Shown one piece after another: positions 6,059 through 62,051 of a DNA stretch of 64,000 nucleotides. The notes under the pieces were generated by a model, which saw nothing but the letters and a program-made list of their open reading frames with translations, made no database searches and was not told the DNA's origin. The position numbers were made by a program, and so were the translations under genes. How positions within the stretch are numbered: position 1 is the stretch's first letter; each line of letters begins with the position of its first letter. The stretch is taken from positions 114 through 64,113 of the forward strand of contig JAJCYU010000008.1 of NCBI GenBank assembly GCA_029262755.1. The letters are read 5' to 3'. This DNA is from Anaerolineae bacterium. Its GTDB lineage: Bacteria > Chloroflexota > Anaerolineae > Epilineales > Epilineaceae.

Positions 6059-6227
6059 GGGAAGGCCCTCGATAGGTATGACGTTGAAGAATCGACGCGG
6101 TAGGCCCCACGGTGGGGCAGGGCTTGCAAGCGCTTATCCACGCACGTGAAAAACGTTGAAGTTCAACCACCCTAGCACAGCCCAATTGGCCTGCGCCACC
6201 AGTGTTCTGCTCGCTGATCCATCGGAC

Positions 6228-7067: not shown

Positions 7068-7112
7068 GCGCCTCCTCCCGTGGACATGATGTAGTGAACC
7101 TGGCACGGCAGA

Positions 7113-9953: not shown

Positions 9954-10159
9954 AAAGCCTTCTCCCCATAGCCTCTCGGTTGCCGCGATGAGTAATGATC
10001 CCCTCAATCGCAGCCCGCGCAAGGCTGTCGTAGAATCGGCGGTAGGGTCGGTAAGTGCACACCACCCTCCTGACCGAGCCGCATCTCGCTCGGTGTAGGA
10101 GCAGAGGCGAGATGCGACCGTCTAGAACGAATCCAGCCCGGCCCAGATAATGGAACAAG

Positions 10160-10785: not shown

Positions 10786-10808
10786 TATCATGTTGGAGGG
10801 AGGTCCCG

Positions 10809-24287: not shown

Positions 24288-25322
24288 TTGATCGCCCTCT
24301 TCTCGTTCGTTCTCGGCGTCTTCGTCTACTTCTTCTTCCGATCCATCATCTCCGGCTTCTATGCCATCAAGCCCAACGAGCGGGCCGTGCTGACCAGCTT
24401 CGGCCGGGCGGTTCGGATGCCGGCCATGCTCGAGCCGCGTGCACCGGCGCCGGCGTTGAGCGCGGACGAGGAGCAGCGCTATCGCTATCCGGCCGTGGAG
24501 GTCATCAAACCCGGTGGGCCCTACTTTAAGTGGCCTTGGCAGGAGGTGCACCGGGTGGATGTGGCGACGCAATCGGTACCGCTGACCTGGGACCCGACCA
24601 AGCCGCAGAATACGATCGAGGCGGTCACCAAGGACAACCTGACCACGGGGGTCAATGGGCAGATTCGCTATCGGGTCAGCGAGAACAACCTATACGCGTA
24701 CCTCTTCGGGGTGGAGAGCCCGCTCGAGCACGTGATGGGCTACTTTGTGTCCGTGTTGCGCGAGCGCATCGCCACGTTTGTCGATCCACGGGGCGAGAGC
24801 CTCGTGGCTGCCGGAGAGCTCGAGATCGGAGGCGTGACGGCCGCGGAACTGGGCGAGGGCGTGTCCATCAACGATCTGCGCAAGAACCTGCCGCTGCTCA
24901 ACCAGTACATGGAAGAGCAGTGTCTCTCGACGACCGGGCGTTATGGTATCGAGCTCGACGCGGCGCTGATTACCGAGATCGACCCGCCGCAGGCCGTCGA
25001 TCACGCGCTCTCGGCGATCAACAGCACGCGCAATCAGGTGGCGGCCGATATCAGCACCGCACGCGCCAACGCCGAGCAGCAGATCACGATGAGCAAGCGC
25101 GCCGTCGAGATCGCACGCAACAACGCCGAGGCTGAGGTCGCGCCGCTTCGCGAGATGGCGCAGACGCTCGACGGGATCAAGCGCGAGGCTGGGTCGGCCG
25201 GCCTGATGGCCTACCTGCGCAACCAGCGACTGGCGCTACTTGGACGCGCGCGGCGCATCGTGCTCGGCGGGGGCGCATCGTCGCCGCTTGCAGGCGCAGG
25301 GGAAGGAGGCCGCCGTGGATGA
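24288..25322 (+). CDS. SPFH/band-7 (stomatin/prohibitin/flotillin/HflK-C) domain membrane protein
   Basis: N-terminal TM helix LFSFVLGVFVYFFF. SPFH core AVTKDNLTTGVNGQIRYRV, then a coiled-coil tail. TTG start with AAGGAG RBS. Confidence 0.7.
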   Translation: MIALFSFVLGVFVYFFFRSIISGFYAIKPNERAVLTSFGRAVRMPAMLEPRAPAPALSADEEQRYRYPAVEVIKPGGPYFKWPWQEVHRVDVATQSVPLTWDPTKPQNTIEAVTKDNLTTGVNGQIRYRVSENNLYAYLFGVESPLEHVMGYFVSVLRERIATFVDPRGESLVAAGELEIGGVTAAELGEGVSINDLRKNLPLLNQYMEEQCLSTTGRYGIELDAALITEIDPPQAVDHALSAINSTRNQVAADISTARANAEQQITMSKRAVEIARNNAEAEVAPLREMAQTLDGIKREAGSAGLMAYLRNQRLALLGRARRIVLGGGASSPLAGAGEGGRRG

Positions 25323-26205
25323 CGTCGGCTATGGGCTCATCGCGTTCTTTCTCGGCCTGTTCTTCATACCCATGCTCCTGGGCCTGTTCTCCGCCTTTGG
25401 TGTGTTCACCGTTGTGGACGAGGCGGAAGCGCAGGTCTTCACGCTCTTTGGTCGGGTGCTCGGCGTTATCGACGAAGCCGGCCTGCACTCGCCCATCGTT
25501 CGCTTCGGACCGCAGGCGGTGCTGATCCCCTTCTTCGGCAAGCGGACGAAGGTCAGCACGGCGCTGCGCCAACGCTACTTGCGCGGTCAGATGGTCAACA
25601 GCGAGGAAGGAACCCCGATGGGGGTCGGCATCTGGTACGAGATGCAGCTTTCCGATCCCGAGGCCTATCTGTTCCGCAACACGAATCCCGAGGGCAGCTT
25701 GGAGGCCAATGTGGCCTCCAGCACGGTCTCCGTCTTGTCGAACCTGCAGATGGAAAAGCTGCTTGAGGATCGCCATAGCCTCAGCCGCACGGTGCGTGCG
25801 GCCGTGTCGCCCAAGAGCGAGCAGTGGGGCTACCGGCTGGGTTCGGTGTATATCCGCAAGGTCGCGTTCACGGATCGAGGCATGGTGGACAACATCACCG
25901 ACAAGGTGGTGAAGCGACTGGTGCAGGTCACGAGCGCGATCAAGCAGGACGGCGAGAACCGCGTCGGACTGATCGAGAGCGAGACGGCCAAGAAGGTCAG
26001 CCAGCAGCTGGCCGAGGCGGCCGCGATGCGACCCGGCGTGGTCGGCGCGATGCTCAACGAGATCGGACGCGGCGACCCCGAGATCCTCGAAGCGCTGATG
26101 AACGTGCTCGAGACGGAAGAGCTCGTGTCCTCCGGCGCGCCGGTCGAATGGCTGCCGGAAGGTGTGAGCGTGTTGGTGTCGCTTGGGGATTCGCGCGAGA
26201 CGTAG
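25312..26205 (+). CDS. Second SPFH/band-7 domain membrane protein (paralog, translationally coupled)
   Basis: TM helix GLIAFFLGLFFIPMLLGLF, and VFTLFGRVLGVIDEAGLHSPIVRFGP. GTG start overlaps the upstream stop by 11 nt. Confidence 0.65.
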   Translation, partial: AVDDVGYGLIAFFLGLFFIPMLLGLFSAFGVFTVVDEAEAQVFTLFGRVLGVIDEAGLHSPIVRFGPQAVLIPFFGKRTKVSTALRQRYLRGQMVNSEEGTPMGVGIWYEMQLSDPEAYLFRNTNPEGSLEANVASSTVSVLSNLQMEKLLEDRHSLSRTVRAAVSPKSEQWGYRLGSVYIRKVAFTDRGMVDNITDKVVKRLVQVTSAIKQDGENRVGLIESETAKKVSQQLAEAAAMRPGVVGAMLNEIGRGDPEILEALMNVLETEELVSSGAPVEWLPEGVSVLVSLGDSRET

Positions 26206-31324: not shown

Positions 31325-33598
31325 ATGTGCGTTCATGAGAACCCCGAAGTGATGCTCGTCTCCCGGCCGGCCGGCATGGGGATTGTGCGGCCGCGTTTCG
31401 CCATGTGCACCCTGTCGGCCCTGATCACGCTGCTCGTCGCCGGAGAGCCGATGTTTGCATCGACCCCGTCGCCATCGATGTCCGCGCGCACCGCAGCCGC
31501 ACAGGGCGCCGGCCCCGTGGTCGAGGCGGAGCGCGGGGGCGACGTCTCCGCGGTGGCGACCGTCGGCGATCATGCCTACGTCGCGGTCGGGCGGCGGCTG
31601 CTCGTGCTGGCGCGATCCGACGTGGACGCCGGTCCGGTCGAGACGGGCGCGACGCTGATGCTGCCCGCGCGCTCGATGGACGGGGAGGGAGACCTGCTCG
31701 TGGTCGCGACCGGGGCGCCGGGCATTCCGGGCGCCGTCGCCGTAGTCGATATCGGCCGACCGACGCGGCCGCGCATCGTCGGCCGGCTCGTCGTGCGGGG
31801 TGCGCCGCGGCAGGTCGCGCTCGAGACGCGGGCGGACGGGAGCCGGTGGGCGTGGGTGGCGCTTGGCGTGGACGGACTGCTGCGCGTGGATGTGGGTGAT
31901 CCGACGGCGCCGCGTGTGCTGGACCGGTGGTCGCCGCCCGACGTCGACGGCAAGGCGCAACGCGTGCATGGCGTCGTTGGCGCGGCCCCAAGGGGAGGAG
32001 CGGGGACGGCGTCGCCTGGAGCGGGAGCAGCGGCGGAGTTCGACGGGGTCGCGCTTGTTCTGGGGACCACCGACGAGGAGTTCGACGATATCGCGACCGA
32101 TGTGATTTGGGTGCGCGCGGGGGGCGTTGGGGGAGGCGCCGGGGTGGAGTCGGTCGGCACACGTTCGGTGGGGGCTGGGACGGCCGATTGGTTCGCGGCG
32201 CCCGGGCACGTGGTCTACCTGAGCCGACGCTTCGTGCATGTCTTGCCCATTGGACAGGCCGCGGCGTCGAAGGAGCACGCCCCGATATTGCAAGGTGATA
32301 CGGAGATCCTTCGTGCCGTCGTCGTGGACGACCGTCTCGTGATCGCGCGGAATGCGGTATCCGATGACGGCGCCTTGGACTTGGACGTGCACCGTCTCGT
32401 CGACGCGGAGCGGGTCGGCTCCGGTCGGGTGGCCGGCGTCAGGACGGAGCCGCCGTTGCTCGTGCACGCGTGGAGCTCGATCCTGGTCGCGGCGGAGGAT
32501 GCGGTCCAATTGGTGGACATGGACGGGGCGCCGCGGCTCGTTCGGCGATGGCCGGTGTCGACAGGGCGCTATACGCAGATCCGCGCCTTCGAGGGCGGAT
32601 GGTTGGCGGTGACCGAGCCCGGGGACCTCCAGTGGTTGGATCCGGATGGGGTGCGTCGGGAAGGAGGGCTGACCGAGGAACCCGTCGCACAGGTGTTTGT
32701 CATGGGCGATCGGCTGGTGAGCTTTGCGTTCCAGTCAATGTCGCTTCAGCGGTTGGAGCCCATCGCGGATCCCGGGCCGGGCCCGCGGTGGCGGTATGGA
32801 CGCATCCTGCTCCAAGGACTCGTCAACTCGCGGAACACGGTCCGGGTCTCGGATGACTTGCTGGGCGCCTGGGGTGTTCACGGTGCCGTGGTGCGCGTGG
32901 CACGGTGGATCGACGAGGACCTTGCAGCGTACCCGCGCGACATATTGGCCGGCTTGCCGCGCAGACCGGCGCCCTTTCTCCTCGATGGATTCGAGCTCTG
33001 GGTGACGAACAGTCGCGGGCCGCTGGACGGCTATCGGTACTCGGGCAATGATCGCGAGGATTTCGCGAGCGGCGGCGTACCGGGCTCAAGGCCCTTCGTG
33101 TCCACCGCCATGGCGGGACACGAACGACAGTTCGTGATCGGCGATGCGAACGGCGTGATCGTGCATCTGGACATGCGCGACACCCCGGACGGCCGCGTCG
33201 CATGGAACATGGACGTTCCAGGAGCGCTGACGGGCCTCGCGCTCTGGGAAGAGCAAGCTTGGGCGGCATGGGGATCGCCCACGTCGGGCCTTGGCGCCAT
33301 CGCATCCTCAACGGACCACGCGGTGCCGCTGGGCGACGTGCCGCTCGTGGGCACGCCGCGGCAGCTCACGGCCATCGACGGCAGTCTCTGGGTCGTACAG
33401 GACAACGGTGCGCTGACACGCTATGCGTTCCCACGCGTCGAGCCCGTGCGCACGCCGGTCCCGACGGCGGCGGCGACCGCGCCGAGCGAGACGCCGGCCG
33501 CGACGGTCACGCCGCGCGGCGCGACGCCGGAGCCGTGGGCGGCCGCGTGGGCGTCGGGGCGGCGGATCGCGCTGCCGCTGGTGCGACGGGAGCAGTAG
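31325..33598 (+). CDS. Secreted LVIVD-repeat (beta-propeller) protein, paralog 1; ends with a PT-rich linker and the C-terminal tag GRRIALPLVRREQ
   Basis: Repeats of the type LLRVDVGDPTAPRVLDRW and VVDIGRPTRPRIVGRL. GGGAGGG RBS before the ATG at 31325; alternative starts at 31352 and 31376. Confidence 0.65.
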   Translation: MCVHENPEVMLVSRPAGMGIVRPRFAMCTLSALITLLVAGEPMFASTPSPSMSARTAAAQGAGPVVEAERGGDVSAVATVGDHAYVAVGRRLLVLARSDVDAGPVETGATLMLPARSMDGEGDLLVVATGAPGIPGAVAVVDIGRPTRPRIVGRLVVRGAPRQVALETRADGSRWAWVALGVDGLLRVDVGDPTAPRVLDRWSPPDVDGKAQRVHGVVGAAPRGGAGTASPGAGAAAEFDGVALVLGTTDEEFDDIATDVIWVRAGGVGGGAGVESVGTRSVGAGTADWFAAPGHVVYLSRRFVHVLPIGQAAASKEHAPILQGDTEILRAVVVDDRLVIARNAVSDDGALDLDVHRLVDAERVGSGRVAGVRTEPPLLVHAWSSILVAAEDAVQLVDMDGAPRLVRRWPVSTGRYTQIRAFEGGWLAVTEPGDLQWLDPDGVRREGGLTEEPVAQVFVMGDRLVSFAFQSMSLQRLEPIADPGPGPRWRYGRILLQGLVNSRNTVRVSDDLLGAWGVHGAVVRVARWIDEDLAAYPRDILAGLPRRPAPFLLDGFELWVTNSRGPLDGYRYSGNDREDFASGGVPGSRPFVSTAMAGHERQFVIGDANGVIVHLDMRDTPDGRVAWNMDVPGALTGLALWEEQAWAAWGSPTSGLGAIASSTDHAVPLGDVPLVGTPRQLTAIDGSLWVVQDNGALTRYAFPRVEPVRTPVPTAAATAPSETPAATVTPRGATPEPWAAAWASGRRIALPLVRREQ

Positions 33599-33719
33599 GG
33601 CGGGCGTTGGTGGGACTCGTCCCTTTGGGGAGGGGAGCGTGTCCATAGCAACGGGCGGAAACGTAGTCGTGGGCGGCATGGGGATGCGCGCTGGGACCGT
33701 GAACTTGGGGGAGGCAGCA

Positions 33720-36116
33720 GTGCAAGTGACGTCGATCATGCGCGGAGCGGTGATCGTCGGGAGCGTCGTCCTGGCTGCGCTGGCGCCGGGCGGTGTCCGG
33801 GGCGACATGGGGGTTCGGGGCGACGTGAAGCGCGACGAGGTCGGCCCCGTGGATCGGGCGTTGCGCGTCCCGATCTTGGACACAGGCGCGGTCGACGCCG
33901 CGTTTGCGGCGGATCTCGATCCGCTAGTAGATCCGCGCGTAGGCCCGCAATTCGGCCCGATCGTCAGCCCATTTCTCGATCCACGCCCTGACGCACCCCT
34001 TGCCGCCGCCGGCCTCCCCGCCGCCCCGAACTCCTTCGCGTTCACGCAGGGCGAAGACGGGATTGAGGTGGAGGCCGAGCTCGGCGGCGAGGTCAGCGCC
34101 GTGCAGTCGGTGGGGTCCTTGCTCTACGTGGCCGTGGGGCGGCGGATCGTCGTGATCGATCCCGCGTCGCCGGGGCGAGACGCTACGGATACCGGCATCC
34201 TGCTGCCGTTGCCCGTGCATGCGATGGACGCGCTCGGCGACCGGTTGGTCGCGATCACGGGCGTCATCCGGGGGCGGGCCACCCTTGAGGTGATCGACAT
34301 CGCTGTTCCGACGCAGCCGGTGCATCTTGGGGGCGTGTCGCTGCCGCGATTCGCGCTCGAGGTCGCGTTGGATGCGGCGGTGCCCGACGGTGCCCAGGCG
34401 TGGTTGGCGATGGGATCGGACGGGCTGTGGCGTGCGGACCTACGCGATCCCCGTGTACCGCGTGTTGCGCCGCAGTGGCGACCGCCCGATGCGTCCGGCG
34501 AGAAGCAGTCCGTGGCGGGCGTGATTCGCGCGGACGAGGGCGTCGCGGCGTTGGTGGGCCCGGCGAGGAGTGGCGCGATCCCGATGCAGCCGGTGCAGAT
34601 GGTGCATTGGTTGCGCATGGACGACGAAGGTCGTGCAGCGCAAGAGGTGGGGCGCCAGTCGCTGGGCGCGTCCTACCCAATCTGGCACCGGGCGCCGGGC
34701 TACTTGGTGTACGCGAATTCGTTGATGCTGCACGCCATGCCCATTCGCCGTGCCGAGGATGCGCAACGGTCCTCCGCCATCCGCCTTCCCGGAGGCTTGT
34801 ACTTGGCCGCGACCGTCGTGGGCGAACACGTGATGGTGGCGTACACCTTGACAGCCGATTGGTCCTTGCGCGTGGCGATCCACGCGCTCTCCGACGGCAA
34901 GGAGCTCCGCACCGAGCGGGTCGAAGAGATCGATGCGTCGGGATGGAAGCTGTTGGCCGAGCACGACGAGTCCTTGGTGATGGGTGCTTGGGATGCCTTG
35001 CATCTGCGCTCCGGCGGAGCGGGGCTGGGCGATGTCTCCATGTGGCCCGTGTCGCTTGGACGCTACGTGGCCATCGAGCGCTTCGGCGATGGCTGGCTGG
35101 TGCTGAGCGACGGGGGCGAGCTGCAGTTCATGGACATGGACGGACGCGTGGTCGAGCGCGGGCTGGTGGATCAGCCGCTGAAGCGCTTTGCGGTGATGGG
35201 CGATCGGCTGGTCGGCAGCACCCTGGTGGGCGAGTACTTCCATGTTCTCGAGCGCAGGGACGAAGGACAGGCCGGTTCGAAGTGGCAGTTGGGGAGTCGG
35301 CTTCCCATTCCTCGTCTCAACCGGGAGGATCGGTTCGCGGCGTCCAACGATCTCCTCGCGGTTTGGTCGGCGCACGAGAGGCAGATCCAGGCGGCCCGGT
35401 GGGTCGATGGTACGCTCACGTTGTTTCCCCAAGCCCTACGCGGAAGCCCTCCGGCGTTCTTGGTGGAAGGGGATGAAGTGTGGGTGGCGAACAACGGTGG
35501 TTCGCCGGTCCGCGTGTATCGGTGGAACGATGTCGGTCCGCCGCGTATCACCGGCCAGGTCGGGCTTCGTGCCATATTCGCGGCAACGACGCTCGCGCAG
35601 AGCGGCCGATTCGTTCTCCTCGGAGACTCCACGGGGCAGATCATCCAGGTCGATATGCTGACGTTGATTGGCCAACTCGATTGGCGGCTGGACATGCCCG
35701 CGGCGATAGACCAGCTCGCCCGCTACAAATCCCAAGGCTGGGCGACCTGGGGTGGCACGCAACCAGGCTTGGCGGCCATTGCGTGCGGCCGGACAGAGGG
35801 CATGCCTTTGGGATCGATCGGCCTGAATGGGGTGCCCAAAGCGTTGGCCGCCCGAGACGGCCACCTGTGGGTCATCCAGGAGAGTGGGGCGTTGACCCGC
35901 TACCGCTACCCAGGCGCAAACGTGGTGCGCGCGCCGAGCGCCACACCGACCGCGACGACCACGGCGCCGCCCACCGCGACGATGGCGCGGACGCCGACGG
36001 CGGTTGCAACAGCCACCGCGACGCGCAGCCCGGCGCTGGCGACGGCGGCGGCGCGGCGCGCGGGGTGGGCGGACGGGCGGACGATCGCGCTGCCGATCGC
36101 ACGGCGCGAGCCGTGA
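33720..36116 (+). CDS. Secreted LVIVD-repeat protein, paralog 2; ends GRTIALPIARREP
   Basis: LEVIDIAVPTQPVHLGG, LWRADLRDPRVPRVAPQW. Same domain order and C-terminus as paralog 1. GTG start with GGGGGAGG RBS; the start is uncertain. Confidence 0.6.
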   Translation: MQVTSIMRGAVIVGSVVLAALAPGGVRGDMGVRGDVKRDEVGPVDRALRVPILDTGAVDAAFAADLDPLVDPRVGPQFGPIVSPFLDPRPDAPLAAAGLPAAPNSFAFTQGEDGIEVEAELGGEVSAVQSVGSLLYVAVGRRIVVIDPASPGRDATDTGILLPLPVHAMDALGDRLVAITGVIRGRATLEVIDIAVPTQPVHLGGVSLPRFALEVALDAAVPDGAQAWLAMGSDGLWRADLRDPRVPRVAPQWRPPDASGEKQSVAGVIRADEGVAALVGPARSGAIPMQPVQMVHWLRMDDEGRAAQEVGRQSLGASYPIWHRAPGYLVYANSLMLHAMPIRRAEDAQRSSAIRLPGGLYLAATVVGEHVMVAYTLTADWSLRVAIHALSDGKELRTERVEEIDASGWKLLAEHDESLVMGAWDALHLRSGGAGLGDVSMWPVSLGRYVAIERFGDGWLVLSDGGELQFMDMDGRVVERGLVDQPLKRFAVMGDRLVGSTLVGEYFHVLERRDEGQAGSKWQLGSRLPIPRLNREDRFAASNDLLAVWSAHERQIQAARWVDGTLTLFPQALRGSPPAFLVEGDEVWVANNGGSPVRVYRWNDVGPPRITGQVGLRAIFAATTLAQSGRFVLLGDSTGQIIQVDMLTLIGQLDWRLDMPAAIDQLARYKSQGWATWGGTQPGLAAIACGRTEGMPLGSIGLNGVPKALAARDGHLWVIQESGALTRYRYPGANVVRAPSATPTATTTAPPTATMARTPTAVATATATRSPALATAAARRAGWADGRTIALPIARREP

Positions 36117-40014: not shown

Positions 40015-41256
40015 ATGATCCACATCGTACGTGCCGGTGGACGGCGCTTACTGCTCGTGGCGGGCCTTGCGGCTCTTGCCATGGCGCTGGCGCCTCATGC
40101 CGTGCTTGCCCAGGACGCTACCGTCGCGATCTCGCCCGCGGACAAGGGCGTGGCCTGTAATGAGAACACGACCGTCAGCGTGATGATCAACAACGTAGAG
40201 GACCTCTTCGGGGTCGATTTCAAGATCAGCTATGACCCCAACGTGGTCGACGTGGTGGATGCCGATGGCGGCAATCCCGGAACGCAAATTCAGCAGGGCA
40301 CCTTCCCCGACGTGAGCGGCGGGCAGGGCCTGGTTCAGGTCAACTCGGTCGACGTCGGCACAGGCACGATCAGCTACGCCGCGACCCTGATCAACCCGTC
40401 GCCCGCGCAGGACGGAAGCGGCCCGGCGGCGCAGATTACGTTCACGGGCAAGGCCAATGGCACGACGGACGTCGAGCTCGTGGCCGTGCTGCTGTCGGAC
40501 AACCTCGCGCGGCCCATTCAGGCCGTGCCGATCGACGGCAAGATCACGGTCAGCGGTTGCGACGGAGGCGGTCGTGCAACCGCGACCTCGCAGACGCCAT
40601 CGACACCACCGACACCGGCGACTCCGGCGACCCCGATCCCCGGTGACGACGATGATGACGATGACGATGACGACGACAAGGAATGCGCCCACATCGTGAC
40701 CCGCGGCGAGAACCTCTACGGCATCGCGACGCGCTACGGCGTGACGGCAACGGCCCTGGCCGCCCGCAACAATATCAAGAACCCGAACTGGATCTACGTC
40801 GGCCAGAAGCTGTATATCCCCGGCTGCGTAGGCGGCCGACCCGGTGGCCCTGCGCGACCCGGCGACGGTCCGGATCGGCCCGGTGGTAATCCGGGTGGCG
40901 GCGAGTGCTTCGGCTACTCGATCCAGAACGGCGACCACCTCTTCGGCATCGCGCTGCGCTACGGCGACACGGCCTACAACCTGGCGCTGCGCAACGCGAT
41001 CGTGAACCCGAACCTGATCTATGTCGGCCAGCGGATCGAGGTCTGCGGCGACGGCAAGGCGCCGGCTCCCGGGCCGGGCCCGGCCCCGAAGCCCGTTCCC
41101 GGCGGCAAGTGCAAGTTCACGCACTATGTGAAGCCCGGCGAGAACTTGTTCCGCATCGCGATCAACTACGGCACGAGCTACAACACGCTCGCCACGGTCA
41201 ACAATCTGGTCAGCGCCGAGCTGATCTACGTCGGCCAGGGGCTGTGCATTCCGTAG
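40015..41256 (+). CDS. Secreted cohesin-like domain protein with a poly-Asp (D11) linker and three LysM peptidoglycan-binding domains
   Basis: Signal peptide LLLVAGLAALAMALAPHAVLA. Cohesin-like NENTTVSVMINNVEDLFGVDFKISYDP. LysM ×3: HIVTRGENLYGIATRYGV, YSIQNGDHLFGIALRYGD, HYVKPGENLFRIAINYGT. Confidence 0.75.
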   Translation: MIHIVRAGGRRLLLVAGLAALAMALAPHAVLAQDATVAISPADKGVACNENTTVSVMINNVEDLFGVDFKISYDPNVVDVVDADGGNPGTQIQQGTFPDVSGGQGLVQVNSVDVGTGTISYAATLINPSPAQDGSGPAAQITFTGKANGTTDVELVAVLLSDNLARPIQAVPIDGKITVSGCDGGGRATATSQTPSTPPTPATPATPIPGDDDDDDDDDDDKECAHIVTRGENLYGIATRYGVTATALAARNNIKNPNWIYVGQKLYIPGCVGGRPGGPARPGDGPDRPGGNPGGGECFGYSIQNGDHLFGIALRYGDTAYNLALRNAIVNPNLIYVGQRIEVCGDGKAPAPGPGPAPKPVPGGKCKFTHYVKPGENLFRIAINYGTSYNTLATVNNLVSAELIYVGQGLCIP

Positions 41257-41672: not shown

Positions 41673-44600
41673 GTGCATGCCGGGCCGCTCTTGCATCGCC
41701 CTCGGGCCGCTGCCATCCTGGCACGCATGAGCGCGCCCGTCCCTCCCCCCGTCTCGCCCACCGGCGCGCCGCGCAACGCGCGGACCGCCCCGTTGCGGAG
41801 CCAACGTCTCCGCCGCCGCATCGCCCCGCCCGTCGTGCTCCTGATGCTGGTTCTGGGAGCCGCCGGACCGTGGGGGGCGCGGCGTCCCGTCGCGGGCCAA
41901 GAACCGCCGACCGTGACGCTCAGCGGCCAGATCGGCGGGCTTGCGTTGGATGTGGCCGTGGTCGCGGCCGGCAGCGCGGACGGAGCCGCGAGCCTGCGCG
42001 TCGCCGTGGGGCCGCGGGTGCTCGCGCTCGACGTCGGGACGACGGCCGGCGCGGACGGCGCACCGCCCGTCACGACGACCGCGACCTCGCCCCTGTTGCC
42101 CGGCCTGGTGAGGGCCGTGGCGGTGGCCGAGGACGGGCGTACGGTTGTCGTGGGCGATGCCTTTGGCGTAGCCGTATGGGACGGCAGCTCCGACGTGCTT
42201 CGACGTACGTTGGATGCCTTCGACGGGCGTGCAGTGACCGTCATCGGAGCGCGCGCCGTCGTGGCTACGCGCGAGGGGGAGATCCGCGTCGTGGATCTTG
42301 CGGACGATGGCGGCGGCGCCCCGGACGCGACGCTCGCCGTAGCCACGGCCGCGCCGGCGGTGGCGCGTGGGACGGCCGAGAACGTCGTGGCCGCGGCGCG
42401 TGTGGGCGACACCTGGTGGGTGGCCGTGCAGGCATCGGACGAATTGCCCGTCGCGTGGCTTGTGCCGATCGCGCTGGTTGGGGCGGAATCGCCGAGCCCG
42501 GGGGCACCCGTGCCGCTCGAGGCGCTGGTGCAGGACGTCTCCGCTACGGCGGATGGAGGGTTGCTCGTCCTGCAGGAACGACTGGGGCTTGCGCGTTGGG
42601 ACGTATCGGACCCGGCGGCGCCTATCGCGGGCGCCCGGCTCTCGCCGGAGGGATTGGATGCTCCGCTTCGTGGTGTGGTCGCGGATCGGGACGATCCACA
42701 AACGGCTTGGTTGCTCGGCGGCTTCGCGGGTGTCTTGGATGGGGACGGTAACTCGGGCACCGGACGCGTATGGCGCATGGCGCTGCCCGAACCGGGCGAT
42801 AGCGCGGCGCCGAGCGTAGCAGCCGTGGTCGCTACGGATCGGATTGCGGACCGTGGGGTCGCGTTGGGCGGCGGGCTGCTGTGGGCACTCCACGGCGATA
42901 CGGCGCTGTCCGCGGTGCGCACCACCGACGGTGCGCCTCCTTCCGGGAACGCGCCGACGCGGATCGGCTCGGCGTGGGCGAGTGTCGGCCTGGTTCGCGG
43001 CACCGCGGCGCGCCCCGATGGCCGGGTCGCGGTGGCCGCGGGTCCGGCGGGTGTCTGGCTGCTCGCCGACCAAGGCGCGGCCGGCTACGCGGTCGTCGAC
43101 GGCCCGTGGTCGGTCGGCGGCGAGGCGGATGCGGTGGCTTGGGACGCAGAGGGCCGGTTGTGGGTGAGCATGCAGCGGCCGGGCGCGGTGCAGGTGCTCG
43201 AGCTCCCGAGCACGCCGGGCGACGATCCGGTCAGCCTGGGGCGGCTCGAAGGGCTGGGCACGCCCGTCGACTTGGCGCTCGACGAGGAGCGCAGGCTGCT
43301 CTATGTGGCCGATGCCGAGACCGGTCTGTGGATCGCGAACGCGGACCCGGCGGCGCCGACCTTGATCGCGGAAGCAGCGGAGCTGACGGAGGCTTGGGCG
43401 ATCGTTCCGGACGTGGACCGGGTCTGGGTGGCCGGCGGCGATCGCGGCATCTATTGGATCGACACGCTGAATCCGGCCGCCACCCGCAGCGTGTACTCCG
43501 CCAACACGCCCGGGACGGCCTTCGGGCTTGCGCGCTTCGGATCGCACTTGCTCGTGGCCGATCTGGAAGGCGGCTTGCAGACCATCCGCACGCTTGCCGG
43601 ACGCCCGATGGCCGGTGGTAGCCTCGCGCTCGGCCAGGTCGTGGACGTCGCGGCGGTGGGCAGCTTCGGCTACGCGGCTGTGACGGGCGTCGGCGTCTTC
43701 GAATTCGATGCGCAGGACATCCGCGTGTTGACCGCACGCCGCGCCGTGCGTGTGCCGGGGCTTGTGCGGCGCCTCGAGTCGATCGAGGCGCGTGTAGGAG
43801 GACGCCTGCTTGCGACCGCGGGCACGGGTGGGCTGAGTTGGTTGGCGGTGCAAGCGCCACCGGGCTTGCCGACGCAGACGCCGCGGCCCACCGCGACCGC
43901 AACACCGACCCCGCCGCCGCCCGCCTTCATCCCTTGGGCCGGCACCGGCCGGGAGGAGACCCCGCTGCGCTTGAAGGATCGCGCGATGTTCACGGCCGAG
44001 GAGCTGGGCGGCCGGGCGCTGGGCGGCGTGGCGCTGCGCGGCGCACGGGCGGTGCTCGGCCTGGCGAACGTCCGTGGCGGCCCGCGCGCGGGACTTGCAC
44101 TGCTGGCGTTGGACGAAGTGCCGCCGCGCCTCTTCGGGCGACACGAGGGCCTGGACGTCGCGCCGCGCGATCTTCTGTTCGACGGCGCGCTGGTGGCGGT
44201 GGCAGCGTGGACCGACGGGCTGCAGCTGGTGAGCGTCGATTCGCTCGGCCGCTTCACCACGGCCGGATCCCTCAGCATGACGCTGCGCGCCGGCGCCGTC
44301 GCACAGGGCGAGGAGGGTACGCTCTACGTGGGCGGCACGCGCCTGGACGCCGGCCCGCGTGGAGGCTTGCTCGCCGTCGACGTGGCGGACTCCAGTGCGC
44401 CCCTTGCCCTCGCGGAAGCGCGCTTGCCCGACGCGGGCGCGATGGCGTATTCGGACGGCGCCCTCTTCGTTCTCGACTACACCGCCGGCCTACGCGTTTT
44501 CGACGCGCGCACGGTCGGCGCGCTCACCGAAGCCGTCACGATACCCGCACCGGGCGCGGCCGACATCGCCGCGCACGTTGCGTCGGACGGGCGCGTGCGC

Positions 44601-45035
44601 GTGGCGCTGGCCGTGCGCTCCGACGGCGGCGCGGTCGACGGCGGCCTCGTCCTGCTCGACACGACCGATCCGCTTTCGCCGACGGTCGCCGGCCGCTGGG
44701 CGCGTAGCGGCGACGAGCCGGGAGCGCTGGCTCGCTTCGTGGCGCTGACCGAGGCGGAGATTCCGGGGCTGGGGGATGACGGTGGTAGCGGCGACGCACG
44801 TCGCGATCGCACGGTCGCGGCACGCGTGGCGCAAGCCGAGGCTCGGGTCGTGGCGTGGATAACCGGAGAGCGGACGCTCTTTGCGTTGGACGTGACGGAC
44901 ATCGCGGCGCCGCGCCTGCTCGCCGAGCTGCGGATGCCGGCCGGCGGTCTGACCGGACTGGCGGCGGACGGCGCGCGTGCGATCGTGCTGCACCGCACGC
45001 GCGGCGCGATCATCGTGGACTTGATGGCGCGCTGA
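41673..45035 (+). CDS. Large secreted LVIVD-repeat protein, paralog 3 (1120 aa; start may be at 41727)
   Basis: LARWDVSDPAAPIAGARL, LWIANADPAAPTLIAEA, LLAVDVADSSAPLALAEA, LFALDVTDIAAPRLLAEL. Signal-like VVLLMLVLGAAGPWG. Confidence 0.6.
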   Translation: MHAGPLLHRPRAAAILARMSAPVPPPVSPTGAPRNARTAPLRSQRLRRRIAPPVVLLMLVLGAAGPWGARRPVAGQEPPTVTLSGQIGGLALDVAVVAAGSADGAASLRVAVGPRVLALDVGTTAGADGAPPVTTTATSPLLPGLVRAVAVAEDGRTVVVGDAFGVAVWDGSSDVLRRTLDAFDGRAVTVIGARAVVATREGEIRVVDLADDGGGAPDATLAVATAAPAVARGTAENVVAAARVGDTWWVAVQASDELPVAWLVPIALVGAESPSPGAPVPLEALVQDVSATADGGLLVLQERLGLARWDVSDPAAPIAGARLSPEGLDAPLRGVVADRDDPQTAWLLGGFAGVLDGDGNSGTGRVWRMALPEPGDSAAPSVAAVVATDRIADRGVALGGGLLWALHGDTALSAVRTTDGAPPSGNAPTRIGSAWASVGLVRGTAARPDGRVAVAAGPAGVWLLADQGAAGYAVVDGPWSVGGEADAVAWDAEGRLWVSMQRPGAVQVLELPSTPGDDPVSLGRLEGLGTPVDLALDEERRLLYVADAETGLWIANADPAAPTLIAEAAELTEAWAIVPDVDRVWVAGGDRGIYWIDTLNPAATRSVYSANTPGTAFGLARFGSHLLVADLEGGLQTIRTLAGRPMAGGSLALGQVVDVAAVGSFGYAAVTGVGVFEFDAQDIRVLTARRAVRVPGLVRRLESIEARVGGRLLATAGTGGLSWLAVQAPPGLPTQTPRPTATATPTPPPPAFIPWAGTGREETPLRLKDRAMFTAEELGGRALGGVALRGARAVLGLANVRGGPRAGLALLALDEVPPRLFGRHEGLDVAPRDLLFDGALVAVAAWTDGLQLVSVDSLGRFTTAGSLSMTLRAGAVAQGEEGTLYVGGTRLDAGPRGGLLAVDVADSSAPLALAEARLPDAGAMAYSDGALFVLDYTAGLRVFDARTVGALTEAVTIPAPGAADIAAHVASDGRVRVALAVRSDGGAVDGGLVLLDTTDPLSPTVAGRWARSGDEPGALARFVALTEAEIPGLGDDGGSGDARRDRTVAARVAQAEARVVAWITGERTLFALDVTDIAAPRLLAELRMPAGGLTGLAADGARAIVLHRTRGAIIVDLMAR

Positions 45036-48659: not shown

Positions 48660-48879
48660 GGCGGCTCCGGGCTGCAATCTGCTGAGGGGGCAGACAGGGG
48701 GCATTCCGTGGGTTGGTTGACGCGCGTCCCGCAGGATCGGCCGGCCCGTGCAACGAAGCGGGCAATCGCGGAAACACGGGGTGGCTATGGTGCCACACGG
48801 GCCAGGGCGGCACAACGGAATCCACGCGCCATTGCGCCGCGCGATCGGCTATACTCGCGCTGGGTCGCGACTTGGATTA

Positions 48880-49075
48880 TGACGTGGCCCACGCCCCGTG
48901 GCGGGGGAAGTCCGGTGAGAGTCCGGCGCTGTCGCGCAACGGTAACCACGCTCGCCGCGAGTGGATGGAATGGGGAGATCGGCCTAGACGTCGGCCACCC
49001 TGATCGCTTCGCTCGCACTTCGTGGAAGCCCGAGTACCCGTCCGGTGGTGTTCGTCCCATCAGCCCTCGCGTACC
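48880..49075 (+). ncRNA. Cobalamin (AdoCbl) riboswitch candidate in the 5' leader of the DUF4430-like/ECF operon
   Basis: GGGAAGTCCGGTGAGAGTCCGGCGCTGTCGCGCAACGGTAA matches the cobalamin-riboswitch core (GGGAA..GGTG.AA.TCC..GC.G.C.CGCAAC.GTAA). The downstream GGAAGCCCGAGTACCCGTCC is a degenerate B12-box-like segment. Confidence 0.55.
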
Positions 49076-49199
49076 GGGGCTCGCGGACGAGGACCGGACG
49101 ACCCGGACCGTGAGCGTGCCCGACACGCAACGGCCGACGTAGCGGCCCCCGCCCTCGGCACCCCGGCGCACCGACCCCCGTGCCGGAGGCGCCGTCTCA

Positions 49200-51568
49200 T
49201 GAATACCCGTATTCCTGGTCCCCGTTTCAACCAAGTTCCCCCTCCATCCGCTAGCCTGAGCACGCGATCCCTGCGATCGTCACAGCTCGCCCGCCATGTC
49301 GCGCGCCTCTTCGCGCCCCGCCGGGCGCGCGGCCCGATCGCCGTCGTCGCGCTTGGGGCCGGCTTCGCGCTCGCCCTTGTACTTGGTGGGGCTTGGGCCG
49401 GGCCATCGGGGCCCTGGGGGCCCGGTGCGCTCGATGCGCATGGTGGCTTGGACGTTGACGTCGTGGTGGATTTCGGCGACGGGCGCGTCGAGGTGGCGCA
49501 CCTGGATGCGATCTCCGGGACGACGGCGCTCGACGCGCTGTACGCCACCGGGCTCGAGGTCGTGACGCACCACGCCGGCTTCGGGTTGGCCGTGTGCAGC
49601 GTGGGCGGTGTCGGCTGTCCGGCGGACGATTGTTTCTGCGCCTGTCAGGGAGAGGACTGCCGTTTCTGGGGCTTCCAGCACGGCGACGGGGCGGGGGGCT
49701 GGACGAGCGCGGCCGAAGGGGCGGGAGACTTCCTCCTTCCCGAGGCGGGGTCGGTGCAGGGCTTCGTATGGGGTCGGCCCGCGCCCATGGCGTGGACGCC
49801 CGAGCGCTTGGGTGCGATGAACGCGTGGACGTGGCTGCGCGGACAGATCCAACCGGACGGCGGACTCTTCGACCCTGGGCTCACCTTGGACGGCCTGCTG
49901 GCCGCGCGGGCGGTGCAGGCGGATCCTGCCGGCTGGCGCGCGGGCGACGGCGGGCCGAGCGCCGTGGATAACGTGCGCGCCGCGGCAGGCAGCTACCCCG
50001 CAATCGGTGCGGCGCAGGCGGGCAAGTACCTGGCCGGGTTGGCGGCGTTGGATCAAGGCCGGGTCACGCCGGAGGAACTCGCGAGCGCCAGGGCGCAGAC
50101 GCTCAGGACCGTCGACCTTGGGTCCGGGCGTTTTGGCGCGTCTGTTTGGGACCAGTCCTGGGCGATGATCGGCCTCGCAGCCTCGGACTTGCCCATCGGC
50201 GTGACGTGGATCGCGGCCTTGGAAGCGGAGGCGGCGGCCAGCGGTGGCTGGGGCGATCTGCCGGGCGCCGAAAGCGCGAGCCCGGACGCGACCGGCCTGG
50301 CACTGGCGGCGCTCGGCGCGGCCGGGGCGTCGGAGAGCCCCGCCGTAGCGCCGGCCTTGGCGTGGCTGACTGCGACGCGCCACGCGAACGGCGGCTGGGG
50401 CGGCGACGGGTCGGGCGATACGCCGGCCGGCAACGTGAACTCGTCCGCGTTGGTGGTCACCGGCCTGCTGGCCGTGGGCGAGGATCCGCGCGCAACACCG
50501 TGGACGGTCGATGGCGTGGGGCCGCTTACCTACCTGGCCTCGACACAGGAAGCCGAGGGCTTTCTTCTCCATACCCCCGATGCCAGCGAGCTGCTGGCCA
50601 CGCTGCAGGCAATCCCGGCGATGTCGGGACGCAGTCCCTTGCTGCGCGGCGCGGCGGTTTCGAGCGCACGCGCGGTGCAGGCGGCCCTGGACGAGCGGCA
50701 GATGAGCGGCGCCTTCGCGGCCGGTTTCATCGAGGGTGGTCCGGCGGCGACGATCGATGCGCTGCTTGCGCTGCATGCGGCCGGCGTGGATCCGGAAGAA
50801 GCGTTGGAGCAAGGTGCGCTCAGCGTGACCGCGTGGCTGATCGCCGAAGGTCCCGCCTACGCGCTGTCGGGCGCCGAGGGCGCAGGCCGGGTCGCGGCGG
50901 CGGCGGTGGCGTTGGGTCTCGACCCCGCGAACGTGGGCGGCGCTGACATCGCGGCGACCTTGGCCGGGCATCTCGACGCCGTGACCGGCCTCTTCGGGGA
51001 CGGCGCAACCGCGTCCCAAGCGTGGGCAATGATCGGCTGGTCGGCGTTGGGGCGCGACGTGCCGGACACCGTCATCGATGCGCTAATGGCGTTGGCCGGC
51101 GACGGCGGCTGGAGCATCGGCGCCGGCGCGCCCGTGGCGGACGCCGACAGTACGGCGCTCGCGCTTGAGGCGCTCGTCGCGGCGGGGCTGTCGGCCGATG
51201 ACGTGCGGGTGCGCGGCGTGGTTGCGGCACTCGGCGGCTTCCAGGATGCGAGCGGTGGCTTCCGCGGCCTCTTCGGCATCGCCAGCGCAGACACGACGGC
51301 GCGCGCGATCGTCGCGCTATCGGCGGCGGGCCAGCACGTCGACGCTCCGGGCTGGGCGCGCAGCCGCGATGGCCTGCGCTGGACGACGCCGCGCGAGGCG
51401 CTGACGGCGATGCAGTTGCCGAACGGACACTTCCCCGGCCTCGGCGACCAGCCGGATCCGAGCGCGACTTACGTGGCCCTGCGCGGCCTGGTCACGCGCG
51501 CGGAGTACGTGGCGCCGGAGGCCTCCGGTGGTCGCGTGTACCTGCCGTTGCTGGTGCGCCCGCGATGA
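49200..51568 (+). CDS. Secreted protein: N-terminal DUF4430-like (BtuG/transcobalamin-like) domain plus prenyltransferase/terpene-cyclase-like alpha/alpha-toroid repeats; C-terminus GRVYLPLLVRPR
   Basis: CPADDCFCACQGEDCRFWGFQH is the DUF4430-like Cys motif. Repeats ASGGWGDLPGAES, ANGGWGGDGSGD, GDGGWSIGAG. Signal-like IAVVALGAGFALALVLGGAWA. Confidence 0.65.
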
Positions 51569-59534: not shown

Positions 59535-62051
59535 CTACTTCGGCCCGTTGGGTCCGTAGCGGTCCAAGAACAACATGCGTGCCGTGAGCGGGATATAGAT
59601 CGATTCCGGCGGCGGTGGGGCGATCGTCGGGATTGCGGTCGGGCGCGTCGGTGCCGGCGTCGGCGTGACGGGCGTTGGGGTGGGGCCGGTTGCGGTCGGG
59701 GTGGGGGTAGGGACCGTCGGCGTGACGCGGGGAGTCGGGCTTGCGGGGGGGAGCAGCGAGGGTAGGAGGTCGCTCCAGCCCCAGGCGATCACGAAGGCGC
59801 CGCCGTCGCGGGTGCCGCGGACGTCGTAGCCGGGCTCGGCGGCAACGAGGTCGGGTGCGCCGTCCGCGTTTAGGTCCGCGATGGCGAGGGCGTCGCCCAG
59901 GCGTAGGTTGGCTTCCAGGCCTTCGCGCAGCGGCCACATCTCCGCGCCGATGGCGTGGGCCCTTCGTAGACGAGGACCCGATGGGGAGCCGGGGACGACG
60001 TAGAGTGCGCCCGCGGCGGGTTGGCGGTCGCGCGACATGTCCGGCGCGCCGACGACGAGCTCGGGGAACGTGTCGCCGTCCAGGTCGCCGGCGGCGAGCG
60101 CGCTGCCGAAGGCCGTGCGAGGACCGGGGGCGTCGGGGAAGGCGGGCAGGTCCTGATGCACGAGCATGGTGCGCGCGTGGTCGATGCCATCTGGGGAGCC
60201 GAAGAGGACGAGCACGTCGCCCGCTTCGCGCGCGCCCGAAACGGACGCGCCGGGCGAGGCGATGACGAGGTCCGCGAAGCGGTCGCGGTCGAAGTCGGTC
60301 GCGAGCAGGCGGCCGCCGAAGTGGCCGTTGCGTTCGGCGGAGCCGGGCAGGTCGTCCACGTCGCGGCTGAGCTCCGTCACGCGATCGACGAGCAAGGTGT
60401 TGGTCACGCCCTCGCCGGCGCTGTAGGCCAGGAGCACGATGCCCGCGCCGCGTGCGCTGCCGGCGATGCCGTCCGGCGCGCCGACGACGAGATCGGCCAG
60501 GCTGTCGCCGTCCACGTCGGCCAGGGCGAGGGTGGTGCCCAGGCCCTCGCTGGCAACCGGGTCGCCGGGGATCGTTTCGGGTTCGCGGTCGAACTGCAGG
60601 GAGCCGACGAGCAACGGGCCGGCATCGAGGCGGCCGGGCAGCACGTAGACGCGGCCCGCACCGTTGCGCCTGGCGACGTTGGCGCCCGGGGCGCCTGCCG
60701 CCAGGTCGTCGATGCCGTCGCCGTTGAAGTCGCCGACCGCGAGGGATGCGCCTAGCCGGTCACCCGGACTGGCCGGGGGGCCGAAGGGGCGAGGCTGTCC
60801 GAGGAGGCCGCCGGCGGCGCCCTCCCACAACCAGAGGCCGCCTGCGTCGTTGCCCGCCCGGTCGGAGCGGGGGGTGCCGATCACGAGGTCGTCGTAGTCG
60901 TCGCCGTTGAAGTCGCCGACGGTCAACACGGCGCCCCATTGCAGATCGACCTCGCTGCCCGGGCTCTGTTGAATGGCGCCGGGGAACGCGCGCCCGCCGC
61001 GTACGACGCTCAGCCAGCCGCCGACCGAGGCCGCCTCGTCGTCTAGGACGGAGGCTACCGCCAGGTCGGGAACGAGGTCGCCGTTGAAGTCGCCCACGGC
61101 CAGCGTCTCGGCGAAGCCCTGCTGGGGCAGCACGGGCCGGCCGACGTCGGTGCGCACGTAGGTGCGCGGGGTCCAGGCGAGGGACCATGCGGCGGCGGGC
61201 CAGCGTGCCACCGCGATCTCGACGGCGTCGAGCAGCGCCGCGTCGTGCAGGGCGCGCTCGTCGGGGACGGCGAAGACCGCAAGCGCAAGGCCCGCCGCCT
61301 GCGCGTCGCGGATCTCGGCGACGTCCTGCTCGGAGTCCAGACGCCCGTCGGCCAGGTCCAGCGCGATGCCCTCAGCGCCGGCCGTGCTCGCCTTGTCCCA
61401 GTCGGAAGGTGTGCGCAGCACGAGCCAGCGATCTGCCGCGGGGAGGCCGGCGGCCAGGGCGGCGAGCGTGCTCAGGTTGGCGGTGGCGAAGCGAACGCGG
61501 TTGCCGGCGCCCGCCGCGGAGACGGCCGCGAGCACGGCGGCCGGGTCGACGCCTTCGCGCAGGTGGAGCGTAAGTGCCAGCGGATCGGCCGGGTCGCCCG
61601 CGGTGGCGGCGAGCGCCTCGGCGAGGCGCGGCACGGTCTCGCCGGCGAAGGCGATGCCGAACCATGCGCCGGCGTCGCAGCGCTCGATCTCGGACATCGG
61701 GCGTTCGATAACGAGGCCCGTGCAATCGGTCGTGCGGTCGAGGGACTCGTCGGCCAGCAGCAGCGGGACGCCGTCCGCGCTGGCGCGCACGTCGAGCCAG
61801 GCGCGGTTGGTTCCCTCGTCGCGCGCGGCGCGTAGGGCGGCTAGCGTGTTTTCCGGCGCTTCGGAGGACAGGCCTCGCCACGCGGACAGGCGCGCGACAT
61901 CCGGATGGTCGCGTGGGCCCGCCGCGACACGGCTGCGCAGCACGGGGGCGAGCATCGCCAGCAGGGCCAGCAGCAGCGCGAAATGAATGGCGCGCAGCGG
62001 CGTACAGCGCGCCGCGGCGAAACGCGGACGGCGCGGGAAGAGGCGGCTCAC
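59535..62051 (-). CDS. Secreted glycerophosphodiester phosphodiesterase (GDPD) domain protein with multiple FG-GAP (integrin-alpha-like) repeats and a C-terminal PT-rich linker
   Basis: GDPD N-terminal region HPDVARLSAWRGLSSEAPENTLAALRAA. FG-GAP repeats VGDFNGDGIDDL, VGDFNGDDYDDL, ADVDGDSLADL, GDLDGDTFPEL. Signal LLLALLAMLAPVL. Confidence 0.75.
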   Translation of the reverse strand: MSRLFPRRPRFAAARCTPLRAIHFALLLALLAMLAPVLRSRVAAGPRDHPDVARLSAWRGLSSEAPENTLAALRAARDEGTNRAWLDVRASADGVPLLLADESLDRTTDCTGLVIERPMSEIERCDAGAWFGIAFAGETVPRLAEALAATAGDPADPLALTLHLREGVDPAAVLAAVSAAGAGNRVRFATANLSTLAALAAGLPAADRWLVLRTPSDWDKASTAGAEGIALDLADGRLDSEQDVAEIRDAQAAGLALAVFAVPDERALHDAALLDAVEIAVARWPAAAWSLAWTPRTYVRTDVGRPVLPQQGFAETLAVGDFNGDLVPDLAVASVLDDEAASVGGWLSVVRGGRAFPGAIQQSPGSEVDLQWGAVLTVGDFNGDDYDDLVIGTPRSDRAGNDAGGLWLWEGAAGGLLGQPRPFGPPASPGDRLGASLAVGDFNGDGIDDLAAGAPGANVARRNGAGRVYVLPGRLDAGPLLVGSLQFDREPETIPGDPVASEGLGTTLALADVDGDSLADLVVGAPDGIAGSARGAGIVLLAYSAGEGVTNTLLVDRVTELSRDVDDLPGSAERNGHFGGRLLATDFDRDRFADLVIASPGASVSGAREAGDVLVLFGSPDGIDHARTMLVHQDLPAFPDAPGPRTAFGSALAAGDLDGDTFPELVVGAPDMSRDRQPAAGALYVVPGSPSGPRLRRAHAIGAEMWPLREGLEANLRLGDALAIADLNADGAPDLVAAEPGYDVRGTRDGGAFVIAWGWSDLLPSLLPPASPTPRVTPTVPTPTPTATGPTPTPVTPTPAPTRPTAIPTIAPPPPESIYIPLTARMLFLDRYGPNGPK

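Follow-up and report, generated by a model that had tools for sequence, protein, structure and literature searches.

A short C-terminal tag shared by exported proteins of an Anaerolineae bacterium, a probable divergent relative of the putative YLP-box sorting motif

Results

Four exported proteins encoded in one window end in a similar tail

We analysed a 64,000-nucleotide stretch of DNA from an Anaerolineae bacterium (Chloroflexota; assembly GCA_029262755.1, contig JAJCYU010000008.1, positions 114 to 64,113), hereafter the window, in which a preliminary description had pointed out a recurrent tag at the extreme C-terminus of several secreted proteins. Translation confirmed the tag at the end of four proteins (proteins 1–4; Table 1), all of which also carry an N-terminal signal peptide or anchor. 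We refer to the tag as the box, after the YLP-box family of motifs with which it is compared below. The N-termini of all four carriers (for protein 1, ...VRPRFAMCTLSALITLLVAGEPMFA) consist of a basic n-region followed by 15–20 hydrophobic residues, and here as elsewhere in this work the signal peptide and anchor calls come from a hydrophobicity heuristic only. Proteins 1 and 2 belong to the LVIVD-like beta-propeller proteins and are restricted in lineage; since they are paralogues (36% identity), the window contains three independent carrier families rather than four. A Pro/Thr spacer directly before the motif had been ascribed to every carrier; we found a long Pro/Thr/Ala-rich linker ahead of the tail in proteins 1, 2, and 4, but none in protein 3. 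In the three proteins that have such a linker, the box behind it is therefore not part of the upstream fold. None of the four proteins matched Por_Secre_tail/TIGR04183, the sorting domain of the type IX secretion system (T9SS), or dockerin (PF00404).

Protein 3, for which we obtained weak, sub-threshold matches to prenyltransferase/squalene-cyclase-type alpha/alpha-toroid families, is the first gene of an ECF/CbiQ/ABC cluster controlled by a cobalamin riboswitch. The riboswitch model RF00174 matched upstream of the gene over its entire length (model positions 1–189 of 189) with 28.8 bits (E = 2.2e-5) against a gathering score of 31.5, a threshold that nothing in the Rfam scan reached. This full-length, sub-threshold match backs the earlier description of protein 3 as B12-regulated. 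The cluster continues with a single open reading frame (ORF) of 1412 amino acids (aa), in which an ECF S-component-like domain, a CbiQ domain, and two ABC ATPase domains are joined, with intervening acidic tandem repeats (DVVDESDVV..., GADGADGADG...); its counterpart on a syntenic 112-kb metagenome contig (L001) has 1015 aa. This ORF could be a transporter fusion, or it could stem from an error of assembly or annotation.

Table 1. Carriers, tails, boxes, and associated features of the window. Tails are translations and end at the stop codon; signal peptides are putative.
Feature	Position	Strand	Description
Protein 1 (P0010)	31325..33598	+	757 aa; LVIVD-like beta-propeller, signal peptide, Pro/Thr/Ala-rich linker, box
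Tail of protein 1	33545-33598	+	AWASGRRIALPLVRREQ
Box of protein 1	33560..33589	+	YLP-box variant RRIALPLVRR
Protein 2 (P0012)	33639..36116	+	825 aa; paralogue of protein 1, signal peptide, Pro/Thr/Ala-rich linker, box
Tail of protein 2	stop ends 36116	+	...GRTIALPIARREP / ...WADGRTIALPIARREP
Box of protein 2	36078..36107	+	YLP-box variant RTIALPIARR
Protein 3 (P0001)	49199..51568	+	789 aa; exported
Tail of protein 3	stop ends 51568	+	...GGRVYLPLLVRPR / ...ASGGRVYLPLLVRPR
Box of protein 3	51533..51559	+	near-canonical YLP-box RVYLPLLVR
Protein 4	59535..62051	-	GDPD phosphodiesterase with seven FG-GAP repeats, signal peptide, Pro/Thr linker, box
Tail of protein 4	59535-59603	-	...PPESIYIPLTARMLFLDRYGPNGPK / ...PPPPESIYIPLTARMLFLDRYGPNGPK
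Box of protein 4	59577..59603	-	YLP-box variant SIYIPLTAR, behind the long Pro/Thr linker, followed by MLFLDRYGPNGPK
Internal box-like peptide	43923..43955	+	AFIPWAGTGRE, directly behind the Pro/Thr linker between the two halves of a 1120-aa LVIVD-like protein
LVIVD-like protein	41673-45035		1120 aa
Cohesin-LysM protein	40015-41256	+	Cohesin and 3xLysM
Cobalamin riboswitch	48845..49059	+	RF00174, sub-threshold, upstream of protein 3
ECF/CbiQ/ABC ORF	53229-57467	+	1412 aa

The tag is a protein-level motif that exceeds chance expectation

The cores of the four tails read VYLPLLVR (protein 3), IYIPLTAR (protein 4), IALPLVRR (protein 1), and IALPIARR (protein 2), and thus follow the YLP-box core, in which a hydrophobic residue precedes [Y/F/W], L, P, two hydrophobic residues, any residue, and [R/K]. 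Ala takes the place of the aromatic residue in proteins 1 and 2, and protein 4 differs from the family by Ile for Leu and by a 13-residue extension. All four tails have an Arg at position +6 from the aromatic or Ala residue, and all boxes lie at the extreme C-terminus, with 2, 2, 2, and 13 residues separating the Arg from the stop codon in proteins 1–4, respectively.

When all six frames of the window were translated (127,996 codons), the pattern [IVL][YAFW][LI]P[LIV]..R had exactly four matches, all at these four C-termini and each in a different ORF of 776–913 codons. From the amino-acid composition, about 0.005 C-terminal matches are expected (Poisson P ~3e-11); the pattern was picked after the data had been seen, and independent outside sets, presented below, agree with it. 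A looser, five-residue core matched 21 times over the six frames, and the only matches within ORFs longer than 700 codons were the four tails, all of them at most 16 residues from the stop. The G+C content of the window is ~62–74%. At the DNA level the four box copies vary at synonymous positions, which identifies the motif as one of the protein and not as a DNA repeat. We conclude that the recurrent C-terminal tag is real and far beyond chance. The exact regular expression proposed earlier was over-fitted, and a more general form describes the tails better: an optional R, a hydrophobic residue, [Y/F/W/A], [L/I], P, a hydrophobic residue, two residues of any kind, and [R/K], followed by 0–13 residues.

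Curated YLP-box models recognise the family but miss its divergent members

The motif had been suggested to be undescribed, which holds only for the searchable literature, since two curated models of NCBIfam release 20 already cover it. NF050076 (sort_motif_YLP) and NF053834 (ultrashort_CTERM) share the product name "YLP-box putative sorting motif-containing protein". The former (NF050076.1; 11 positions, cutoff 15 bits) was found by scanning the tails alone, and the latter (NF053834.1; 10 positions, cutoff 10 bits) surfaced when the tails of other Chloroflexota were scanned. As a positive control, a canonical tail ending in RVYLPLVLR scored 18.7 bits with NF050076 and 14.8 bits with NF053834. 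With NF050076, the tail of protein 1 scored 12.5–14.1 bits (model positions 2–11) and that of protein 3 scored 9.3–12.3 bits (model positions 3–11); neither matched NF053834. The tails of proteins 2 and 4 matched neither model, and the same was true for the internal copy in the window and for the "LPW" tails of two homologues of proteins 1 and 2 (P0013 and P0063), both described below. Full-length window proteins gave no match to either model.

Within the protein 3 family, the tails KIFLPLILR (14.9 bits) and CPGIYLPLIRQS (13.1 bits), each ending at the stop codon, exceed the NF053834 cutoff, and LVIVD homologues end in canonical boxes, so that above-cutoff boxes occur in homologues at the same position as in the window carriers. 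The YLP-box family also shares with the window carriers its core, (R)-hydrophobic-Y-L-P-L-V-L-R, its place at the extreme C-terminus, and its exported cargo. We therefore consider it very likely that the four tails are divergent relatives of the YLP-box. The motif is thus already present in curated databases, yet uncharacterised, and the window adds divergent variants to it. Because the curated hidden Markov models (HMMs) miss the Ala-for-Tyr, "LPW", extended, and internal forms, current counts of YLP-box proteins are likely underestimates.

The box is conserved in orthologues and enriched at C-termini outside the window

Orthologues of protein 3 (32–59% identity) end, directly before the stop codon, in SGRVWLPLLLRPR, GGSVWLPALLRDR, GGAVYLPFAVWR, TLFLPLVGGRW, or AIYLPIAGR. 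On the syntenic contig L001 the box is retained on the orthologues of both protein 3 and protein 4, the latter ending in ...PEPLYIPLAARMLFLDRYGPPSE. In this sole orthologue of protein 4, the tail extension is no more conserved than the adjoining Pro/Thr linker, so its conservation is uninformative. A scan of species-representative genomes for the protein 3 family yielded 80 loci, with best identities of 40–43%. Their titles are nearly all Chloroflexota, mostly Anaerolineae (Ardenticatenales, Caldilineales, Anaerolineales, and Thermoflexales), and one locus (L025) bears the title Candidatus Thiomargarita nelsonii; as the loci were chosen by homology to protein 3, they are no independent sample of the host lineage. 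Among the family members in Anaerolineae genomes, 27/79 have a strict box at the C-terminus and 48/79 a relaxed one, and unrelated proteins encoded next to family members also bear the box. Variants of the F-x-P or H-L-P type, such as tails ending in FFPIILKH or VHLPITVR, escape the strict pattern. Among the C-termini of the protein 3 family (L002–L081), those of a short subfamily have a conserved Cys ~4 residues ahead of the box (C-P-x-x-Y-L-P), and some members of this subfamily stop right after the Cys and have no box.

For proteins 1 and 2, word-indexed homologue searches returned nothing or the query itself alone, and the cluster representative of protein 1 was a 56-aa fragment; finding relatives therefore required an exhaustive HMMER search. 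Both proteins turned out to be near-orphans, with three or four full-length relatives in 1.84 billion representative proteins, and the remaining matches covered the LVIVD repeat region only. The full-length homologues end in ...RLVLPWAERP (P0013), ...SLWLPWVGVP (P0014), and ...RVWLPWAWVE (P0063), which we call the "LPW" variant, and one relative has ...HLFLPRLGRE followed by ~35 more residues.

Two larger sets allowed the position of the box to be assessed independently of the window. The first comprised the best 149 LVIVD-like representatives (183,688 residues), which were not chosen on their C-termini. In this set, the pattern [YFW][LI]P[LIVA][LIVAMT].[RK] had ten matches, every one of them among the final 11 residues and none internal, and a four-residue core was 37-fold enriched in the last 20 residues, with no matches for two scrambled controls. 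The second came from metagenome contigs, in which a DNA-level pattern for YLPLVLR that included no stop codon matched 123 times. For those within ORFs of at least 100 codons, a stop codon followed within 0–5 codons in 39/77 cases, against 1.55 expected if the positions were uniform. In this metagenome set Asn is the commonest next residue, and 0 to about ten more residues follow. Taken from 50 deduplicated tails and the metagenome flanks, the consensus is (R)-[V/I/L]-[Y/F/W/A]-L-P-[L/I/V/A]-[I/V/A/L]-x-[R/K]. Overall, 0 to 16 residues follow the core, and this variability makes a reading of the free carboxylate (PDZ-type) unlikely. The box is kept in orthologues at 32–68% identity, as well as in unrelated families of many genomes that differ in G+C content. 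Both checks proposed along with the original observation, namely enrichment at C-termini (here in the LVIVD set and the metagenome scan) and conservation in related proteins (here in the protein 3 orthologues and the homologues of proteins 1 and 2), were therefore passed.

Carriers resemble the cargo of surface-sorting systems

We identified 41 carriers on the metagenome loci, with DUF11, PKD, beta-helix, Peptidase_C25, S8, M4, C11, BNR/sortilin, NHL, FG-GAP, and LVIVD domains, a range that is the usual cargo of surface-sorting systems. According to our crude heuristic, 73% of carriers have a hydrophobic signal at the N-terminus, compared with 44% of other long ORFs (p = 5e-4). Carriers also cluster, as at least two were found in 8/32 metagenome loci and four in this window. 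Finally, LVIVD homologues of other lineages have, at the same C-terminal position, a Por_Secre_tail (the T9SS sorting domain) or, in two homologues, a dockerin, indicating that the box sits where known sorting and docking modules sit.

A box-like peptide lies between the halves of a fifth window protein

In addition to the four tails, the window encodes the box-like peptide AFIPWAGTGRE inside an LVIVD-like protein of 1120 aa (Table 1). It lies in the context ...TPTPPPPAFIPWAGTGREE..., which is kept in the L001 orthologue as AYVPWAGTGREE (AYVPWAGTGRE), and it resembles the "LPW" tails of the homologues of proteins 1 and 2. This arrangement suggests that a box-tailed protein has become fused to the neighbour downstream of it, or else that the protein is processed internally at this site.

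Other genes in the window

The first 16,000 nucleotides of the window have the look of a defence island, part of it with a lower G+C content (~0.62 vs ~0.70). This region encodes a helicase with an MrfA Zn-binding domain (35–2791), a UvrD-like helicase (2795–4858), DarT (10160–11179), a macro-domain DarG-like partner (10809–11870), and a TIR-STAND-TPR protein (13037–15883), together with four ORFs at 4907–10022 that gave no Pfam match. Further along, two adjoining genes of the SPFH/Band 7 family are located at 24288–26205 on the forward strand.

Discussion

From the cargo that carries the box, its C-terminal enrichment, and its equivalence in position to known sorting and docking modules, we infer that it probably acts as a sorting, processing, or retention signal of the cell envelope that is read outside the membrane. 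A role of this kind had already been suggested from the window alone, and it remains the best reading and a reasonable guess. In such a scheme, the N-terminal signal would carry the protein across the membrane, and the Pro/Thr linker would often keep the tail clear of the folded domains. A dedicated envelope factor would then read the box as a free linear peptide, and would either cut or transpeptidate at the box, so that the downstream part is discarded, or dock the box non-covalently. Either way the cargo would be retained on, or processed at, the cell surface. Since the box has no transmembrane helix, recognition would have to take place outside the membrane or during translocation, unlike in sortase and exosortase systems. 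That the box is proteolytically cleaved or transpeptidated is possible, if on balance somewhat doubtful; this branch is favoured by the variable and discardable downstream sequence, by the conserved Arg/Lys, and by the occurrence of boxes at module boundaries.

Small C-terminal sorting signals have been defined as tripartite, with a motif, a transmembrane segment, and a basic cluster (10.1101/2023.06.07.544157). The window tails do have a motif near the C-terminus, but no transmembrane segment, as two or three hydrophobic residues follow the Pro and the proteins end 2–13 residues past the Arg. Their basic residues amount to one or two Arg per tail (RR, RR, R.R, and R), which do not form a cluster behind a helix. 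The box nevertheless shares several features with the LPXTG/sortase, PEP-CTERM/exosortase, PGF-CTERM/archaeosortase, GlyGly-CTERM/rhombosortase, and MYXO-CTERM/myxosortase systems: a short motif close to the C-terminal end of proteins with a signal peptide, numerous unrelated and often clustered carriers in each genome, a frequent position behind a low-complexity linker, and basic residues that follow. The L-P dipeptide of LPXTG is likewise present in the YLP-box. What sets the YLP-box apart from these systems is the lack of a helix, a total length of ~10 residues instead of 20–35, the presence of one or two basic residues, and the existence of internal copies. That the tag is not of the LPXTG or PEP-CTERM type, as first proposed, is thus borne out by the lack of a transmembrane helix.

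Other known systems resemble the box in different respects. Like the T9SS Por_Secre_tail, which is handled by the PorU/PorV sortase, the box occupies the C-terminus of homologous LVIVD proteins and needs no transmembrane helix, and the two share cargo such as C25 gingipain-like peptidases and PKD, beta-helix, and FG-GAP domains. However, the T9SS signal is a folded beta-sandwich of ~75–80 residues that serves outer-membrane transit in Bacteroidota-type diderms, whereas the YLP-box is a linear peptide of ten residues in Chloroflexota. In the case of dockerin and cohesin, the likeness is that some homologues have a dockerin at this C-terminal position and that the window encodes a secreted cohesin-LysM protein, but dockerin is a Ca-binding domain of ~60–70 residues and the box has no such repeats. 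Ultrashort tags such as the CAAX box (Rce1) and Asn-His-Val (butelase and asparaginyl-endopeptidase ligases) illustrate that three or four C-terminal residues suffice for processing or transpeptidation, with few residues leaving. The frequent Asn after the YLP-box Arg in the metagenome copies is reminiscent of Asn-His-Val, but these are eukaryotic and plant systems that use other residues, and the window tails have no Asn there.

Several observations weigh against the reading of the tails as YLP-box relatives with an envelope-sorting role. First, the tripartite design is absent, given that the box comes without a transmembrane helix and with one or two basic residues. Second, a Pfam search with ~30 proteins of the 64-kb window revealed no gene for a sortase, exosortase, rhomboid, or CPBP protein, and thus did not bring up the sortase-, exosortase-, or rhombosortase-like partner that had been envisaged. 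All-against-all clustering of neighbours in 32 metagenome loci likewise detected no recurrent non-carrier family near the carriers. Third, the window tails fall under both curated cutoffs, with no HMM match at all for proteins 2 and 4. Fourth, a literature search returned no paper with the term "YLP-box", none that ties YLPL to sorting in Chloroflexi, and no experimental evidence; the 2023 preprint on small C-terminal sorting signals (10.1101/2023.06.07.544157) does not mention the YLP-box. Fifth, some boxes are internal or N-proximal, with examples both in the window and in metagenome loci. In L092 (3739–6780, reverse strand), a Peptidase_C25 protein has one YLP-box ahead of its catalytic domain and a second one at its C-terminus; in L096, L112, L134, and L157 a linker or another domain lies behind the box; and in L150 (7267–8382, forward strand) a signal anchor precedes a Pro/Thr linker, the box, and a domain. 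The box is therefore not obligatorily C-terminal, and internal copies would not be anticipated if the signal were strictly C-terminal. They are better accommodated by a modular site of recognition or processing than by a signal that requires a free C-terminus.

Going one step further, and more tentatively, the box may be the substrate of a new, helix-free route of envelope sorting in Chloroflexota. The factor reading it would be a clan-CD transpeptidase, extracytoplasmic and possibly Arg-directed, or else a wall-anchored receptor, and could act both at C-termini and at interdomain junctions.

Rather unlikely, in our judgement, is that the box serves solely for non-covalent docking or assembly. 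By analogy with dockerins, it would then be a short strand-forming ligand of a receptor anchored in the wall, sheath, or S-layer, remaining uncleaved as a minimal dockerin substitute. Docking would tolerate the internal and N-proximal positions and the variable downstream tails, and true dockerins do occupy the same position in homologues. The four carriers and the 1120-aa LVIVD-like protein themselves gave no dockerin match. A candidate receptor would be the secreted cohesin-LysM protein (Table 1), whose gene adjoins that of the 1120-aa protein in an arrangement kept in L001 and L002 (90% identity over the cohesin part in L001 and 57% in L002). However, homologues of this protein were found in only 2 of ~200 loci, so there is no co-occurrence signal and the receptor role stays speculative. 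Moreover, ten residues are very short for a specific interaction of high affinity, and docking overlaps with the envelope-signal explanation, of which it forms the retention branch.

We regard it as improbable that the box is a maturation site only, at which a secreted gingipain-like (C25) or clostripain-like (C11) peptidase with Arg/Lys specificity trims tails and splits polyproteins with no anchoring involved. In line with this idea, conservation of the Arg/Lys at +6 is second only to that of L-P, with R nearly invariant in the 41 metagenome carriers and R or K present in 27/49 deduplicated tails. In addition, 5/41 carriers are C25 or C11 peptidases themselves, the C25 domain in L092 is flanked by two boxes, and removable-looking C-terminal domains follow the boxes in L112, L134, and L157. 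Nevertheless, several tails have the Arg as their very last residue (YLPLVLR), so that there is nothing behind it to cut off, the trimming of 2–5 residues has no obvious purpose, and the peptidase carriers may be mere typical cargo, as in T9SS.

Short hydrophobic C-terminal peptides are also known from ssrA-type and Prc/Ctp substrates, and by analogy the box might be a degron or quality-control tag, through which a tail-specific protease sets the turnover of exported proteins or a cytoplasmic protease clears unexported copies. This is very improbable, because anything from 0 to 16 residues may separate the tag from the carboxyl end, the tails finish in polar or charged residues, internal copies exist, and the tag is restricted to surface-type cargo. 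Finally, chance, composition bias, or a DNA element, for instance a terminator or repeat, whose translated copies look alike by coincidence can for practical purposes be dismissed: although the genome is ~70% G+C and rich in Ala, Leu, Pro, and Arg codons, and two of the four carriers are paralogous, chance and composition were rejected on the window count (~0.005 expected vs 4 observed), the LVIVD set with its scrambled controls, the metagenome stop-proximity scan, and conservation in orthologues and in unrelated families of other G+C, and a repeat or terminator on the synonymous differences between box codons.

Chloroflexota are abundant filamentous bacteria of sludge, sediments, and hot springs, and to our knowledge the way in which proteins are displayed on their atypical envelope is largely unknown. 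A tag of ten residues found on many of their proteases, repeat proteins of adhesin-like type, and proteins for nutrient capture offers a concrete entry point, both for predicting the surface proteome and for searching for the factor that reads the tag. If the tag proved portable, it might also provide a minimal display or ligation tag. Should the proposed sorting route be true, it would represent a new mechanistic class among the ways in which bacteria anchor surface proteins, and would open an approach to the poorly understood Chloroflexota envelope.

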